From Allosphingosinicella sp. (GTDB taxonomy: Bacteria > Pseudomonadota > Alphaproteobacteria > Sphingomonadales > Sphingomonadaceae): a stretch of DNA of 64,000 nt. The position numbers and the translations under genes are program-made. The stretch covers positions 5,222-69,221 of the forward strand of contig DASQNR010000014.1 of the NCBI GenBank assembly GCA_035644835.1, given 5' to 3'. This document shows, piece by piece, positions 1,489 to 7,398 of the stretch; the first letter of the stretch is position 1; the number at the start of each line of letters is the position of its first letter. A model generated the notes under the pieces. The model saw nothing but the letters and a program-made list of their open reading frames with translations. It did no database searches and had not been told where the DNA came from.

Positions 1489-2349
1489 TCAAGGCGTCAG
1501 CGCCAGGCAGCGCGCGTGGCCGGCAAGGTCGTTGTGCAGGGCCGTGCGCAGGCCTTCGACAGCGAAGAGCGGCGCCACGCCCGCGGCCTGCCGGGCGCCA
1601 AGCTCGATGCAGGCAATCCCGCCCGCGCCCAGCAGCCGCCTCACCTGAGGCGCAAGCCGCCGATAATCGTCGAGCCCGTCCGGTCCCGCGAACAGCGCCT
1701 CGTGCGGCTCCCACTCCGCGACATCGCGCGGCAGCGTCGCACCGGCTTCGACATAAGGCGGGTTGCACAAGATGAGGTCGAAAGGGCCGGCGACGCCCTC
1801 CGCCCAGTCGCCCAGTCGGAATTCGGCGCGGGTTGCGAGGCCCAGCCGCTCCGCATTGCGGGTGGCATAGTCGAGCGCGGCCGCCGAAGCGTCGACGCCA
1901 AGCCCCCGTGCGTCCGGCCACTGCGCAAGCGCCGCGAGCAGCAGGGTTCCCGGCCCTGTGCCGAGATCGAGGATGCGGCCCGGCGCCTTCCCCGCGAAAT
2001 GCGCCACAGCCGCTTCAAGCAGCGTCTCGCTGTCCGGGCGGGGAATGAGGACGCCCGGCCCCACCTCCAGCTCGATCGTCCAAAAGGCGCGGCGGCCGGT
2101 GATATACGCAACCGGCTCCCCCGCCTCGCGACGCGCCAGGAGAGTCCCAAACCCCTGAGGCGCCGGATCGCCAAGGTGCCGCAGCAGCATATCGCCCCGC
2201 TCCACCCCCAGCGCATGCGCCATCAGCAGTTCGGCGTCGAGCCGCGCAGTATCACTATGCGGCGAAAGGCGCCTTGTACCGTCGGCAAGAGCCTCGCCGA
2301 CGGTAAGCCCCTCCCCTTCAGGGGAGGGGTTTGGGGTGGGGCTTGTCAT
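1489..2349 (-). CDS. prmC: Release factor glutamine methyltransferase
   Basis: LDLGTGPG motif I, NPPY motif, LIPRPDSETL; follows prfA. Start placed at ATG 2349. Confidence 0.95.
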   Translation of the reverse strand: MTSPTPNPSPEGEGLTVGEALADGTRRLSPHSDTARLDAELLMAHALGVERGDMLLRHLGDPAPQGFGTLLARREAGEPVAYITGRRAFWTIELEVGPGVLIPRPDSETLLEAAVAHFAGKAPGRILDLGTGPGTLLLAALAQWPDARGLGVDASAAALDYATRNAERLGLATRAEFRLGDWAEGVAGPFDLILCNPPYVEAGATLPRDVAEWEPHEALFAGPDGLDDYRRLAPQVRRLLGAGGIACIELGARQAAGVAPLFAVEGLRTALHNDLAGHARCLALTP

Positions 2350-2430: not shown

Positions 2431-3507
2431 TTATACTTCATCCAGGCTCGCCAGCTTCTGCGCCTGGTCCTCCGAAACCAGCGCCGACACCAGTTCCTCC
2501 AGCCCCGGGCCTTCCAGGATCTCCGGCAGCCGGTGGAGGGTCAAGTTGATCCGGTGATCGGTCACCCGCCCCTGCGGAAAATTATAGGTGCGGATCCGCT
2601 CGGAGCGGTCGCCGGACCCAACCATCGACTTGCGCGCGCCCGCCCGCTCCGAAGCGAGGCGCTCGCGCTCCTGCTCGTAGAGCCGGGTGCGCAGCACTTT
2701 CAGCGCCTTGGCCTTGTTCTTGTGCTGCGATTTCTCGTCCTGCTGGATCACCACCAGCCCCGACGGCAGATGGGTGATCCGCACCGCGCTGTCGGTGGTG
2801 TTGACCGACTGGCCGCCCGGCCCCGACGAGCGATAGACATCGATGCGCAGGTCGCGGGCTTCGTCGATCTGCACGTCGACATCCTCCGCCTCGGGCAGCA
2901 CCGCCACCGTCGCCGCCGAAGTATGAATGCGCCCGCCGCTTTCCGTCGCCGGCACGCGCTGCACGCGGTGGACGCCGCTTTCGAACTTCATCCGCGCGAA
3001 CACGCCCTGGCCGGTGACGGAGGCGACCACTTCCTTGTATCCGCCGACCTCCGACGCGCTCGCCGAGATCAGCTCCACCCGCCAGCCCTGCGTGTCGGCG
3101 TAGCGCTGGTACATGCGCAGGAGGTCACCGGCGAACAGAGCCGCCTCGTCGCCGCCGGTGCCGGCGCGGATTTCGAGCATCGCCGGCCGGTCGTCGGCGG
3201 CGTCGCGCGGCAGCAGCTTGAGCGCCAGCGCCCGCTCGGCCTCGGGAAGCTGCGCCTCGGTCGCGCGAATCTCGTCCTCCGCCATTGCGCGCATCTCGGG
3301 ATCGTCGCGCATCTCGCCAAGCGAGGCGAGCTCGTCCCGCAGCCGCCGCACCTCCGCCGCAGCGGCCGCCACCGGCTCGATCTCGGCATATTCCTTGGAC
3401 AGCTTCACGAAGGCATCGGCGGCGAGGTCGCCAGCCGACATCGCCGCCTGCAACTCATCGCGCCGCGCCAGTATCTGCGCGATCCGGTCGGCGGAAATGG
3501 ACGTCAC
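2431..3507 (-). CDS. prfA: Peptide chain release factor 1
   Basis: GGQ motif ([15 protein letters not shown]), RF1 PxT motif (RVPATE), [10 protein letters not shown]; GTG start. Confidence 0.97.
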
Positions 3508-3512
3508 AGTCT

Positions 3513-3671
3513 AAGCCCCTCCCCTTCAGGGGAGGGGTTGGGGTGGGGGCTGTACGTTCCCGGCGAAGCGGAGTGGGTCACCTAGACAACCCCCACCCCC
3601 AAATCCATCGGGCGGGGCTTAGGACCGTCCGGGGGACGGTCCACCGCCCGATCCTGAAGGGGAGGGGCTTT
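3513..3671. repeat. Second inverted pair of family A palindromes; the - copy is interrupted by a 46-nt nested hairpin
   Basis: Intact copy 3513-3550. Interrupted copy 3590-3671 with insert 3607-3652 (atcgggcgg...ccgcccgat). Confidence 0.85.
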
Positions 3672-4904
3672 CAAAGCGGCAGCCAGTTCCGCGAGCGCCA
3701 CATTCCGCTGCTCGCCGCTCTGCAAATCCTTCAACGCCGCCTCTCCGCGGGCAAGCTCATCATCGCCAAGAATGATAGCGTAGCGCGCGCCGAGAGCATT
3801 GGCGCGCTGCATCCGCTTCTTCATGTTGCCGCGATAGGCCATGTCGCAGGTGATCCCCGCGCGGCGAAGATCCGCCAGGATAGCCGTGGCAGCCGCCTCG
3901 GCCGTCTCTCCCATCGGCACCAGCGCCGCATCCATCCGCGCCGCCACGGGCGCCTCGATCATCATCGCCAGCCGCTCGATGCCCGCGGCCCAGCCGATCG
4001 CAGGGGTGTGCGGGCCGCCAAGAGCCTCCATCAGCCCGTCATAGCGCCCGCCGGCCAGCACCGTGCCTTGCGCTCCCAGGCGGTCGGTGACGAACTCGAA
4101 CGCCGTGTGGCGATAATAATCGAGCCCGCGGACCAGCCGGGCGTTGCGTGTCCAGGCGACCCCCGCGGCATCCAGACCTGCGGTGACCTGCTCAAAGAAG
4201 CCGCGCGCTTCACCCGTCAGGAATTCGTCAATGTCGGGCGCGCTGTCGGCGGCGGGGCGGTCGCGCGGGTCCTTGCTGTCGAGGATGCGCAGCGGGTTCT
4301 TGTCCAGCCGGGCGAGGCTGTCGTCGGACAGATCGGCGCGCTGCGCTTCGAAATGGGCGACCAGGGCGGCGCGCCAGGCGTCCCGCGTTTCCGCGTCGCC
4401 GAGCGTATTGAGCTGCAGCGTTACGCCGTCCGCAATGCCGAGTTCCTTCAGAAGCTGGTCCGCCATCACGAGCAGCTCGACATCGGCGAGCGGGCTGTCG
4501 GAGCCCAGTATCTCCGCGTCCAGCTGGTGGAACTGCCGGTAGCGCCCCTTTTGCGGCCGCTCGTAGCGGAACACCGGGCCGTGGGTCGCGACCTTCATCG
4601 GCGCGTGCTGCTGCCAGCCTTCCGAAAGCCAGGCGCGGCAGATGCCGGCGGTGAATTCGGGGCGCAGCGTCAGGCTCTCGCCGCCGCGGTCCTCCAGGCT
4701 GTACATCTCCTTCGAGACGATGTCGGTGGTCTCGCCGATCGAGCGTGCGAAGACCTGCGTGGCCTCGAACACCGGCAGCTCGATCCGCCCGAAGCCGTAG
4801 AGCCGCCGCACGCGGTCGAACGCCGCCACCACCGCCCCGAAGCGGTCGGCCTCCTCGCCCCAGATGTCCTGGGTTCCCCTGATCCTTTGCGGCCCCTTGC
4901 TCAT
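3582..4904 (-). CDS. hisS: Histidyl-tRNA synthetase with a repeat-derived C-terminal tail
   Basis: [42 protein letters not shown] motifs; start ATG 4904. Confidence 0.97.
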
Positions 4905-4983
4905 GGCGGCGGGCCTTAGCATCTTTGCGCGGCGGGGGAAGCGGGGTGACGCGGCGCCTTTGAACCGCTAAGGGCCGCCCCCC

Positions 4984-5526
4984 ATGAACATAGACCTCAT
5001 CCCGATCGGCGACGATCCGCCCAATTCCATCAACGTCATCATCGAAGTTCCGATCGGCGGCGAGCCGGTGAAGTATGAGTTCGACAAGGTGTCGGGCGCG
5101 ATCTTCGTCGACCGCATCCTCCACACGCCGATGCGCTACCCGACCAATTACGGCTTCATTCCGCACACCTTGTCCCCCGACGGCGACCCGCTCGATGTGA
5201 TGGTGATGGCGCGCGTGCCCTTCATTCCGGGCTCGGTGGTGCGCTCCCGCCCCATCGCGGTGCTGCGGCTGGAGGACGAATCGGGAGGGGACGAGAAGAT
5301 CCTCGCCGTGCCGATCAAGAGCACCTCGCCCTACTACGCCAATGTCGAGGAAGGCGAGGATCTGCCGATCATCATCCGCCAGCAGATCGAGCATTTCTTC
5401 ACCCACTATAAGGATCTCGAGCCCGAAAAGTGGGTGCGGGTCGGCACCTGGGGCGACCGCGAGGAAGCGGTAAAGGTGATCGAGGAAGCGATCGCACTGG
5501 CCAGGCAGGCGAAGGCGACGGCCTGA
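4984..5526 (+). CDS. ppa: Inorganic pyrophosphatase (family I)
   Basis: VKYE, YPTNYGFIPHTLSPDGDPLDV, DEKI motifs. Confidence 0.96.
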   Translation: MNIDLIPIGDDPPNSINVIIEVPIGGEPVKYEFDKVSGAIFVDRILHTPMRYPTNYGFIPHTLSPDGDPLDVMVMARVPFIPGSVVRSRPIAVLRLEDESGGDEKILAVPIKSTSPYYANVEEGEDLPIIIRQQIEHFFTHYKDLEPEKWVRVGTWGDREEAVKVIEEAIALARQAKATA

Positions 5527-5531
5527 TCAGT

Positions 5532-5619
5532 TCGTCACCCCGGACTTGATCCGGGGTCCACCTTCTTCAATCCGTCTGACAAGAAAGAAGGTGGATGCCG
5601 GATCAAGTCCGGCATGACG
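5532..5619. repeat. REP-like dimer, family B (cgtcaccccggacttgatccggggtcca...tggatgccggatcaagtccggcatgacg)
   Basis: Long inverted arms, each internally palindromic, between ppa and the amidase. Confidence 0.9.
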
Positions 5620-5676
5620 GCCCTTTACCTCCGGCTCCCTCTCCGTCATTCGCGGGCGCAACCAGGAGAGAAGAAG

Positions 5677-7242
5677 ATGCGCCTTTCGAGCCTGTCAGCC
5701 GCCACCGCCGCTCTGGCCCTCACCGCCTGCGCGACCACGCAGCGGCAGGATGCGGCCGCGCCGCTGGCGCCCGCCTTCAGCTCGTCGGCGACAGCCGAGG
5801 CGAATACGGCGGCGGCGCTGCGGCGGATCGAGGCCCTGAACCCGCGCATCAACGCGGTGATCGCCACCGACCCCACCGCCATGGCCCAGGCCCGCGCCCT
5901 CGACGCAGCGCCCAGGCGCGGCCCGCTCCACGGCATGCCGATCCTGGTCAAGGACAATATCGAGACCAGGGGCCCGCTCCCCACCACCGCCGGCAGCCTG
6001 GCGCTCGCCAACAACGTGACCAACCGCGACGCGCCGCTGGTCGCCCGGCTGCGCGAGGCCGGCGCGGTGATCGTCGGCAAGGCCAACCTCTCCGAATGGG
6101 CCAATATCCGCGACGGCGACTCGATCTCCGGCTGGAGCGCGGTCGGCGGCCAGACCCGCAACCCCCACGCCTTGAACCGCAACGCGTGCGGCTCCTCGAC
6201 CGGCAGCGGCGCGGCGGTGGCGGCCGGCATGGTGCCCGCCGCGATCGGCACCGAGACCGACGGCTCCATCACCTGCCCGGCCTCCGTCAACGGCATCGTC
6301 GGCTTCAAGCCGACCGTCGGCCTGGTCAGCCGCACCCATGTCATCCCGATCAGCCACAGCCAGGACACGCCCGGGCCGATGACCCGCACCGTCCGCGACG
6401 CCGCCCTCGTCCTTGCCGGCATGACCGGGAGCGATCCGGCCGATCCGCAGACCGCCGAAGCCGACGCCCGCCGCACCGATTATGCCGCCGGCCTTTCCGC
6501 CGACTCGCTGCGCGGCAAGCGCATCGGCGTGATGCGCTTCGCCAGCGGCTTCGGCACCAACGAGCGGTTCGAGGAAGCGCTCGCCACCCTGCGCGGCGAA
6601 GGGGCGATCCTGGTCGAAATCGCCAAGTTCGATCGCAAGCCGGAGATGGGCCAGGGCGAGTTCAAGGTCTTGCTGACCGAGCTCAAGGCGGACTTGAACG
6701 CCTATCTCGCCACCACTCCGCCCACCGTCACCACCCGCACGCTCGGCGACGTCATCGCCTTCAACAAGGCCAATGCCGCCACGGAGCTCGCCCTGTTCGG
6801 CCAGAGCACCTTCGAGGAAGCGGAGAAGACCAAGGGCCTTTCCGACCCGGAATATAAAAAGGCGCGCGAGACCAGCCTGCGCCTTGCCGGCGCCGAAGGC
6901 ATCGACAAGATGCTCAAGGACAACAATGTCGTCGCCCTGGTCGGCCCCACCGTCGCCGCCGCCTGGCTGATCGATGCGGCGCACGGCGATGCCTATCCCG
7001 GCGGCGGCGCCGGCGGCTTTGCCGCGATCGCCGGTTACCCCCACCTCACCGTCCCGATGGGCGCGGTGAAGGGGCTGCCGGTGGGTCTCTCCTTTATCGG
7101 CCCGAGATGGTCCGACGCCCTCATCCTGTCCTTGGGCTACGATTACGAGCAGGCCTCGATGAAGCGTGTCGAGCCGCGCTTCCTCCCCTCGATCGAGGAA
7201 AGCCCGGAAATCGCCCCGCACCTGGCGCCGCGGGTGCGCTAG
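5677..7242 (+). CDS. Amidase-signature family enzyme, probable lipoprotein
   Basis: VKDNI (Lys), CGSSTGS and GTETDGSITCP (Ser-cisSer-Lys triad region). AGGAGA RBS before ATG 5677; LALTAC lipobox. Confidence 0.9.
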   Translation: MRLSSLSAATAALALTACATTQRQDAAAPLAPAFSSSATAEANTAAALRRIEALNPRINAVIATDPTAMAQARALDAAPRRGPLHGMPILVKDNIETRGPLPTTAGSLALANNVTNRDAPLVARLREAGAVIVGKANLSEWANIRDGDSISGWSAVGGQTRNPHALNRNACGSSTGSGAAVAAGMVPAAIGTETDGSITCPASVNGIVGFKPTVGLVSRTHVIPISHSQDTPGPMTRTVRDAALVLAGMTGSDPADPQTAEADARRTDYAAGLSADSLRGKRIGVMRFASGFGTNERFEEALATLRGEGAILVEIAKFDRKPEMGQGEFKVLLTELKADLNAYLATTPPTVTTRTLGDVIAFNKANAATELALFGQSTFEEAEKTKGLSDPEYKKARETSLRLAGAEGIDKMLKDNNVVALVGPTVAAAWLIDAAHGDAYPGGGAGGFAAIAGYPHLTVPMGAVKGLPVGLSFIGPRWSDALILSLGYDYEQASMKRVEPRFLPSIEESPEIAPHLAPRVR

Positions 7243-7250
7243 GCTTCCCT

Positions 7251-7398
7251 TCGTCATGCCGGACTTGATCCGGCATCCACCTGCCTTGATGTCGGTGAGA
7301 AAGAAGGTGGGCCCATTGAAGAGGTGAGGATGTCCCCCGGACATCCTCAGCCAAGCCGGGGGCTTGGCGGGCCTCTTCAATCAAGTCCGGGGTGACGG
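7251..7398. repeat. Family B dimer with a 67-nt branched hairpin inserted in its right arm; probable bidirectional terminator region
   Basis: Same arms as 5532-5619. Insert 7315-7381 is bounded by attgaagagg/cctcttcaat. Lies between convergent genes. Confidence 0.88.

Follow-up and report, generated by a model that had tools for sequence, protein, structure and literature searches.

Rickettsia palindromic elements (RPE) are palindromic repeats that are found in frame inside genes, and the hairpins of repetitive extragenic palindromes (REPs) are targeted by the insertion sequences (IS) IS1397/ISKpn1 and by IS621 and other members of the IS110 family. In integron attC sites and the inverted terminal repeats (ITRs) of parvoviruses, the fold is conserved over the sequence and the distal part is branched or variable. 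For many palindromic repeat families of the alphaproteobacteria, we know of no mobilising enzyme. Di Nocera et al. (2013; PMC3733652) reported a class of CGTC-tagged REPs without a dedicated transposase, and some of these REPs sit within small 'target palindromes'. We analyzed a stretch of 64,000 nt (the window; positions 5222-69221 of C14, C numbers denoting contigs) from the 3.12-Mb genome of an Allosphingosinicella species (66.7% G+C; labelled G000), in which a sequence-only reading had singled out two short inserts with the same hairpin apex. The inserts belong to a family of 46-67-base self-folding DNA modules of the Sphingomonadaceae that sit in the hairpins of other repeats and occasionally in genes.

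In the window, the 11-mer GTCCCCCGGAC forms the apex of a perfect hairpin at 3627-3637 (- strand) and again at 7332-7342 (+ strand). Both hairpins are flanked by outer inverted arms and each unit interrupts another repeat; the coordinates and sequences of both inserts had been given correctly by the sequence-only reading. We read the architecture of the modules from the flanks of approximately 150 distinct copies of the 11-mer, and GTCCCCCGGAC proved to be the usual apex of three recurrent architectures (types I, II and III). Type I modules, 64-67 nt in length, form a three-way junction on either strand with the layout ATG-nn-CAGG, TC bulge, GCC-nn-GTCC-CCC-GGAC-nn-GGC, T-(8 variable bp)-C-GGG-G-(8)-A, CCTG-nn-CAT, in which hairpin 2 can be any stem around a GGG loop. 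The type I arms have the consensus ATGAGCAGG / CCTGCTCAT and the stretch between them measures 46 nt in 87 of 117 copies. Type II modules (46 nt) have one hairpin and consist of a 9-nt arm, T, GGCyC-GTCC-CCC-GGAC-GrGCC, TTAGCC and the complementary arm, and type III modules (approximately 52 nt) read nnnATGGGGC, T, GCGCC-GTCC-CCC-GGAC-GGCGC, GATGGGG, GCCCCATnnn. The sequence-only reading had linked the two inserts by their identical hairpin apex; the hairpin is indeed shared, and the inserts belong to different architectures, type II and type I, respectively. Their features are as follows.

Window 3607-3652, - strand: insert 1, type II, 46 nt, with arms at 3607-3615 and 3644-3652; its hairpin at 3622-3642 has a stem of 9 bp and a GGG/CCC loop.
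Window 7315-7381, - strand: insert 2, a diverged type I module of 67 nt, with arms at 7315-7324 and 7372-7381.
Window 7325-7349: hairpin of insert 2, tgaggatgtcc-ccc-ggacatcctca, with an 11-bp stem.
Window 7350-7368: second hairpin of insert 2, gccaagcc-ggg-ggcttggc, followed by the bulge ggg at 7369-7371.

On the - strand, insert 1 reads arm ATCGGGCGG, T, hairpin GGACCGTCC-CCC-GGACGGTCC, TAAGCC, arm CCGCCCGAT. Insert 2 has the sequence ATTGAAGAGG-TGAGGATGTCC-CCC-GGACATCCTCA-GCCAAGCC-GGG-GGCTTGGC-GGG-CCTCTTCAAT, and on the - strand it shows the canonical type I order of arm, bulge, GCCAAGCC-CCC hairpin, variable hairpin and arm. It had been drawn with a single hairpin, and the 11-bp stem was correct; the second hairpin at 7350-7368 had been overlooked, and its presence makes insert 2 a three-way junction. 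On both strands, the inserts fold as DNA far more stably than shuffled sequence, insert 1 with z scores of -5.4 and -4.8 and insert 2 with z scores of -8.2 and -7.9. Insert 2 was the sole strong match to the type I covariance model in the window's genome, with E values of 1.6e-8 and 2.5e-8 on the two strands. The identical 11-mer of the two inserts is the commonest apex of the family and not an invariant one, as the model matches include the apexes GTTCC-CCC-GGAAC and TGCC-CCC-GGCA and the window's genome includes TTCC-CCG-GGAA and GTCC-CCC-GGGC. The most constant parts of the modules are the CCC/GGG loops, the bulge and the basal pairs.

The modules resemble REPs, bacterial interspersed mosaic elements (BIMEs) and REPINs (REP doublets that form hairpins) in being small, G+C-rich, palindromic and mostly extragenic, in having compensated stems and in forming mosaics with other motifs, and an action as folded single-stranded DNA, as is thought for REPs, may be a further likeness. 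However, types I-III carry no GTAG or CGTC tag in our alignments, their flanks being arms or host sequence, and the modules are branched or bulged structures with outer arms that lie inside the hairpins of other repeats. The repeat that hosts insert 2 (family B) belongs to the CGTC class, whereas the inserts differ from it in structure and have no CGTC tag; the REP is here the target and not the guest. The likeness to attC sites and parvovirus ITRs is architectural only, and extends to conservation of the fold over the sequence, bulged bases, a branched or variable distal part and two flip orientations. The modules differ from both in having no integron or viral context. The attC core boxes R and L have the form RYYYAAC / GTTRRRY, and GTTRRRY is absent by inspection from the module arm consensus, the integrase context not having been searched.

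The pairing of the modules is kept with extreme fidelity. We counted pairs in 54 distinct type I copies over the three-helix structure, a total of 1512 pair cells, and 97.7% of these held standard pairs, compared to 76% with shuffled partners and 33-38% with partners slid by 1-3 columns. Covariation, the absence of which the sequence-only reading had named as a point against itself, is massive in both stems and arms, with double-sided changes in 278 cells vs 63 in shuffles. One-sided changes occupied just 7 cells, so that G-U intermediates are practically absent. The variable pairs of type I (arm positions 4-5, hairpin 1 positions 4-5 and nearly all of hairpin 2) adjoin pairs that are nearly fixed. 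The type I arms (9-10 bp) differ in sequence between copies and are 95.5% paired across copies. The tabulated type II copies with full-length arms, 16 in number, have 14 different arm sequences, nearly all of them perfectly complementary to the partner arm. The strict Watson-Crick pairing, the equal folding of both strands and the occurrence of both orientations relative to hosts and genes argue for constraint or copying acting on folded DNA and not on a transcript.

We counted the 11-mer in whole genomes with the reversed 11-mer, counted in the same genomes, as the control. The window holds two matches vs 0.05 expected. The whole genome of the window holds three copies, which equals the reversed-control count and is chance level by number. 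All three are apexes of perfect hairpins of at least 9 bp inside inverted arms and share the same repeat context. The third copy (C10:457634) is a close paralog of insert 1, located at the same place in another family A repeat (family A being the host of insert 1), and the stems of the two differ at two pairs, an A-T replaced by C-G in the hairpin and a G-C by C-G in the arm, pairing being preserved in both cases. Across 24 species of the genus, the 11-mer occurred in 0-42 copies, the reversed control numbering 0-2 in all but one genome, and in other families of the order it was at control level. Counting of capped stems, which had been proposed along with the two inserts, therefore gave strong enrichment in congeners (up to 42 vs 0-2 in the control), albeit chance level by count in the window's own genome. 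More than 120 stretches matched the type I pattern when one genome was scanned per species, in records named Allosphingosinicella, Sphingosinicella, Sphingomonas and Sphingopyxis. Sphingosinicella terrae KCTC 52780, Sphingomonas sp. LaA6.9 and Sphingopyxis soli BL03 are among the named carriers of type I. Matches to the type I covariance model ranged from 0 to 61 per genome within the genus, four species having none, and across the Sphingomonadaceae they were found in 26 of 201 genomes and 18 of 112 genera. The window's genome has one type I and four type II copies, and these are probably old and inactive. No module copies were found in viral contigs and plasmids, and on the few complete chromosomes no positional regularity and no replication-strand pattern was visible. 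We found no description of the modules in the searchable literature, the 11-mer itself matching only human primers, and publications on nested REPs, three-way-junction repeats and DUF559 mobility likewise contained nothing describing them.

Empty and filled sites were compared for several kinds of target. Type I modules occur in a mosaic hairpin (GGGGACC-stem-GNA-stem-GGTGGAGGGG), in family A-like hairpins, in several kinds of CGTC REP, in eight tRNA 3' flanks and in open reading frames (ORFs). The preferred landing point is the boundary between loop and 3' stem of several unrelated hairpin-repeat families that were there before the module. The mosaic hairpins of the examined loci and the window's genome comprised 49 empty hairpins of 28 nt and 13 filled ones of 88 nt. 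In the window's genome, 47 family A ends were intact and four carried a type II-like insert; the insertion point (ttcagg|insert|gggtt) is shared by all four inserts, one of which is flipped, and each has different arms that are nonetheless complementary. The copies other than insert 1 are as follows.

C10:457634: type II copy at the same point of family A.
C16:166877, flipped: type II copy at the same point of family A.
C7:233848: type II copy at the same point of family A.

The gcvPB gene (filled in L081 and L179) and an HK97-type capsid gene (filled in L075) have filled alleles that are longer by exactly 60 nt, and both sites are empty in the window's genome. The ORFs of L081 gcvPB and the L075 capsid gene are intact and read through the module in frame, gaining 20 residues. 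The window's genome is also empty at a tRNA flank (L153, +59 nt), at a mosaic hairpin (L182, +60 nt) and at the sites filled in copies of rpoA (+60 nt). These last are extra partial or near-full copies of rpoA, found in two genera (L118 4100-5500, corresponding to G241 C48:12530-13223; L295, corresponding to G167 C4:25191-26342). They carry two to three type I modules, another 61-nt insert, an in-frame TGA and a frameshift, and one insertion site is common to both genera. We considered translational bypass or an intron-like removal for the TGA-bearing modules in rpoA and ruled it out, the hosts being extra partial copies; since intact rpoA lies 5-6 kb upstream of them, no read-through or bypass is needed.

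At the locus of insert 1, the corresponding hisS-prfA junction of G007 bears a family A unit that lacks the insert. For insert 2, an uninterrupted REP dimer follows the orthologous amidase gene in G012 and G020, and other species (L020, L086) show the same insertion point in family B. The uninterrupted hosts that had been reported within the window itself are present, family A at 3513-3549 and family B at 5533-5619, and empty alleles, which had been held necessary to the idea of a moving element, exist in that the window's genome has empty sites for the copies of relatives, between species or paralogs. In all empty/filled comparisons, the module unit (46 or 64-66 nt) replaces approximately 4-6 nt of the target. 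The statement that the inserts split their hosts is therefore right as to the interruption and not as to a simple split, as approximately 4-5 nt of host are missing at each insert. No direct repeat flanked the modules in the empty/filled pairs compared. We also tried a rule by which a module is a core plus an inverted copy of 5-6 nt of target; it fits several ORF sites and fails in the mosaic and family A repeats, where the module arms are not modelled on the host stem.

With these sites, the modules resemble RPE in behaviour: type I modules lie in intact ORFs, in whole codons, and add 20 amino acids to GcvPB and to the HK97-type capsid protein. They differ in being less than half the size of RPE, in occurring in a different clade and in sitting mostly in repeats rather than genes. 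[quoted passage not shown] In contrast to MITEs, the modules have no direct target-site duplication and replace 4-6 nt, their arms are only 9-10 nt long and vary, and no parent IS with the same ends was found beside the Y1, IS110 and DUF559 genes examined. The IS elements that target REPs share with the modules the use of REP-type hairpins as targets and differ in being full-size and protein-coding.

The hosts have a context of their own. By inspection, family B (window 5533-5619 and 7252-7398) has the characters of a CGTC REP, namely a 5' CGTC tag, a G+C-rich stem, a loop of 4-5 nt, a CCA-like tail and an arrangement in dimers. The family A and mosaic repeats are the terminal inverted repeats of units of approximately 0.5 kb that encode DUF559 proteins (Vsr-like endonuclease fold). 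The window's genome has five DUF559 genes, of which one has family A ends and another mosaic ends, and these five as well as all 30 of the DUF559 genes inspected in the genus (L308-L337 in relatives) are bracketed by hairpin-bearing inverted repeats of the kinds CCCCTCCCC...GGGGTGGGG (family A), GGGTGAGGG and mosaic. Since family A repeats bracket DUF559 genes, the abundant family A units of approximately 130 nt (e.g. window 3513-3670) look like short non-coding derivatives of these cassettes. In our literature search, no paper was found that describes DUF559 genes bracketed by these repeats. Type I and type II modules both occur in family A-type hairpins, at different points, and both terminal repeats of one DUF559 unit (G016, L294/L324) contain a type I module. 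The host repeats of the window and the DUF559 genes of its genome are listed below.

Window 3513-3549: intact left terminal repeat of family A, aagcccctcccc-ttca-ggggagggg-tt-ggggtggggg, the host type of insert 1.
Window 3550-3589: non-coding spacer (40 nt) of the short, MITE-like family A unit, with the same layout as the genome's other family A units.
Window 3590-3606: start of the right terminal repeat of family A, cccccacccc followed by caaatcc, with a degenerate left hairpin arm.
Window 3653-3670: remainder of the right terminal repeat of family A, cctgaaggggaggggctt.
Window 5533-5619: uninterrupted family B unit, a dimer of CGTC-tagged REPs, cgtcaccccggacttgatccggggtccacc ... ggtggatgccggatcaagtccggcatgacg.
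Window 7252-7314: left part of the family B dimer that hosts insert 2, comprising an intact left REP and the spacer, then the first part of the right REP (aaggtgggccc).
Window 7382-7398: rest of the right REP, caagtccggggtgacgg.
C16:253626-253934: DUF559 gene with family A ends.
C12:284769-285074: DUF559 gene with mosaic ends.
C16:50012-50326 (L319), C20:93398-93718 (L334) and C7:552128-552436: further DUF559 genes.

The spacer layout at 3550-3589 also matches that of the G007 family A unit at the hisS-prfA junction. A second, unrelated family of nested hairpins was observed in the window's genome, with the form GGGTTCCC-nnCAAAGT-NNT-ACTTTGnn-GGGRWCCC, a length of approximately 36-40 nt and 16 copies, none of them in the window. 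Its hosts are CGTC REP loops, the mosaic hairpin and family A hairpins, and the loops of repeat hairpins seem to be general landing sites in this genome.

C2:46720, C7:409501, C12:470288, C16:114835, C16:258577, C20:94917, C20:102319 and 9 more: copies of the second nested-hairpin family.

The comparisons above show that the modules entered many kinds of site, prefer the loop/3'-stem boundary, replace a few nucleotides without target duplication and then ride with their hosts. On balance, and with confidence a little above even, we interpret them as a superfamily of very small, non-coding, structure-defined nested DNA modules that are mobile or were formerly mobile. The enrichment, the covariation, the unrelated hosts and the empty sites all agree with the core of the sequence-only reading, that of a tiny non-coding element lodging in REP-type hairpins as a repeat inside repeats. 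Because the pairing follows Watson-Crick rules strictly, is the same on the two strands and is restored after every change, it may be as folded DNA, a single strand or a cruciform, that the module is handled. The fixed positions (loops, bulge and basal pairs) suggest recognition by a putative trans-acting protein. The most likely route of spread would be for a filled repeat to serve as template at a target hairpin with a break or a stalled fork, in the manner of gene conversion or template switching; classical cut-and-paste transposition would be less likely. The nuclease of the DUF559 cassettes is a candidate for making breaks at hairpins.

Several observations weigh against an independently mobile module. 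Type I lineages, as defined by the sequence of hairpin 2, are tied to particular host repeats, even within one genome: hairpin 2 TTCGGATCGC goes with family A-like hosts, TGGACAGTGC with the mosaic hairpin, TGAACCGTGC with the GGTCC|CCCC site, and TAAAC...GTTTA (TAAGC in one copy) with tRNA flanks. Identical module copies in G001 and G024 sit inside larger repeated units. In view of these host-tied variants and identical copies, most multiplication is by hitch-hiking on the host repeat or conversion between host copies, and autonomous moves are rare and possibly ancient. All of the empty/filled comparisons are between species or paralogs and none is between strains. At both inserts, the overlapping parts of four other assemblies from the same strain population match the window, and a metagenome scan for an empty insert 2 allele found nothing. 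Replacement of 4-6 nt, microhomology or inverted copying of flanking sequence could each underlie the junction. In the type I set, hairpin 1 and the GGG loop owe their invariance partly to the selection pattern. Finally, no mobilising gene was found among the Y1/RAYT (REP-associated tyrosine transposase), IS110 and DUF559 genes examined, and DUF559, present in 26 of 26 type I genomes, is also present in 84% of the others and too ubiquitous to inform. We also observed a short contig of the same population (L293, JGI 3300018719) that matches the window from the middle of the insert 1 hairpin (3622) and differs in its first 60 nt, and we read this divergence as a chimeric join at the palindrome or as another locus that shares the hairpin, and not as an allele.

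The main rival explanation is that the modules are not independently mobile at all, but are, like the motifs within E. coli BIMEs, optional internal parts of host repeats that arose once per host family and spread by multiplication or conversion of the host. The host specificity of hairpin 2 variants within and across genomes and the identical copies within the larger units of G001 and G024 fit this explanation, as do the constancy of the insertion point within each host family and the lack of the same 4 nt of family A in all four type II copies of the window's genome. We nevertheless regard it as unlikely, since the same module is found in at least six unrelated host contexts, and host-free copies lie in gcvPB, in the capsid gene, in the extra rpoA copies and after several tRNAs, with precise empty sites for several of these. 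The presence of type I and type II at different points of family A-type hairpins is a further argument against a passive origin within each host. In addition, the tRNA-flank lineage adjoins four different tRNAs, which shows that the bare module does move.

A more ambitious extension of the mobile-module interpretation is that modules and hosts form one hierarchical system driven by DUF559 nucleases. The nucleases would nick or cut hairpins or cruciforms, both those of the terminal repeats beside their own genes and REP-like ones, where the loop meets the 3' stem. A filled paralog would be the template for repair, host repeats and CCC-loop modules would both spread in this way, and the modules would be hyperparasites on the cut site. 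We consider this scheme distinctly speculative. The other enzymes that had been suggested for the modules fared poorly. The proposed link to RAYT/HUH enzymes was not supported: Y1_Tnp (RAYT-like) genes are present in 14 of 25 congeners and their flanking repeats, e.g. GGGACAGTATATATTTT and GTGCCAGGCAC, differ from the modules, and application of the type I model to 13 Y1 loci gave two matches, approximately 1-1.5 kb from the gene and none flanking it. The co-occurrence within the family was also weak, with a Y1 gene in 10 of 26 type I genomes vs 23 of 175 genomes without type I; the other 16 of the 26 have no Y1 gene, and several complete, multi-copy type I genomes are among those without one. 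RAYT was therefore rejected as the cognate enzyme, on the grounds of the different repeats that flank these genes and the weak co-occurrence. The modules thus differ from REP-RAYT systems in that they have no cognate RAYT, and RAYT genes are absent from many of the genomes that bear them. The suggested link to IS110 was likewise unsupported, as the IS110-family genes of the genus show no relation to the modules. An autonomous IS with the same ends was not found beside Y1, IS110 or DUF559 genes, to which the search was limited, apart from the inserts within the repeats of DUF559 units. As an observation apart, the RAYT-like Y1 genes of the genus (approximately 225 aa) are flanked by inverted repeats of their own, e.g. 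TAGGGACAGTATATATTTT, GGTGACAGTATACA and GTGCCAGGCACGTGCCTGGCAC, and these units are classical REPtron-like units unrelated to the CCC-loop modules.

L201 3245-4063, L202 1701-2531, L203 1695-2472, L193, L196, L198 and L200: Y1 units with their own inverted repeats.

We also considered that the module is a DNA signal serving the cell, a binding site for a chromosomal protein of the nucleoid or one engaged as a topoisomerase or in replication or repair, its spread being secondary. The conservation is position-specific, with constant loops, bulge and basal pairs beside freely varying pairs, GTCC-N3-GGAC as a duplex has the form of a dimer operator, and the modules persist across 18 genera. This explanation appears improbable, however, given copy numbers of 0-61 among congeners with none in four species, the modules inside ORFs and pseudogene copies, and the lack of positional regularity on complete chromosomes. 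Selection on the transcript for a structured RNA motif (a terminator, a 3'-end stabiliser or a processing site) is more improbable still. The covariation is very strong, many copies are intergenic and located after genes or tRNAs, and the CCC and GGG loops could kiss, all of which an RNA motif might explain. On the other hand, the 7 one-sided (G-U type) changes vs 278 double-sided ones, the equal folding of both strands, the two orientations relative to hosts and genes, the copies inside ORFs and the absence of a T-run after the hairpins weigh against an RNA, and no Rfam match to the elements reached the gathering score. Lastly, the idea that each hairpin was made locally by quasi-palindrome template switching and shares its 11-mer by coincidence accords with the three copies in the window's genome, a number equal to the reversed control, and is effectively refuted by the strong enrichment in congeners, the 25-30 nt outside the apex that are common to more than 120 loci in many species, the type I covariation and the constant architecture with its 46-nt internal length in most type I copies.

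Insert 1 and its host lie between hisS and prfA, and the genes at this junction are given below. In most congeners, hisS abuts or overlaps the start of prfA without a spacer.

Window 2431-3507, - strand: prfA (release factor 1; PCRF, RF-1), downstream of the repeat block.
Window 3582-4922, - strand: hisS (Pfam tRNA-synt_His, HGTP_anticodon).

The hisS frame crosses insert 1 and part of family A before it reaches its stop at 3582, giving the protein a repeat-encoded C-terminal tail of approximately 30 residues (window 3582-3671). In a sister assembly (L289), the PrmC gene call at 506-1366, equivalent to window 1489-2349, starts inside a family A repeat (window 2305-2349). The sole difference between the window and one JGI assembly of its population (L290) is a clustered replacement of 8 bases at window 5732-5740, inside the amidase gene; the replacement puts a TGA into the window's frame and shortens the called amidase gene from 521 to 461 aa.

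Few parts of bacterial genomes are understood as poorly as small palindromic repeats, and the modules add to these a clearly defined, branched family of 46-67 nt. The window's own copies are few and probably old, and the interest lies in the family as a whole, in the maintenance of pairing at the DNA level, in hairpin loops as landing sites and in the link between the hosts and DUF559. The extreme fidelity of the pairing makes the modules a useful model for the copying and 'proof-reading' of hairpin repeats. The hairpin loops of REPs and cassette ends are highlighted as specific landing sites, and the second nested family behaves alike. In addition to being carried as 20-residue inserts in proteins, the modules break assemblies, extend ORFs, as in the hisS tail, and can mislead annotation. 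The finding that host repeats are the ends of DUF559 cassettes provides a concrete enzyme candidate for the whole repeat layer. If the DUF559-driven scheme is true, it would represent a new nuclease-driven, homing-like movement of palindromic repeats and a candidate answer to the question of why many alphaproteobacterial palindromic repeats have no transposase.

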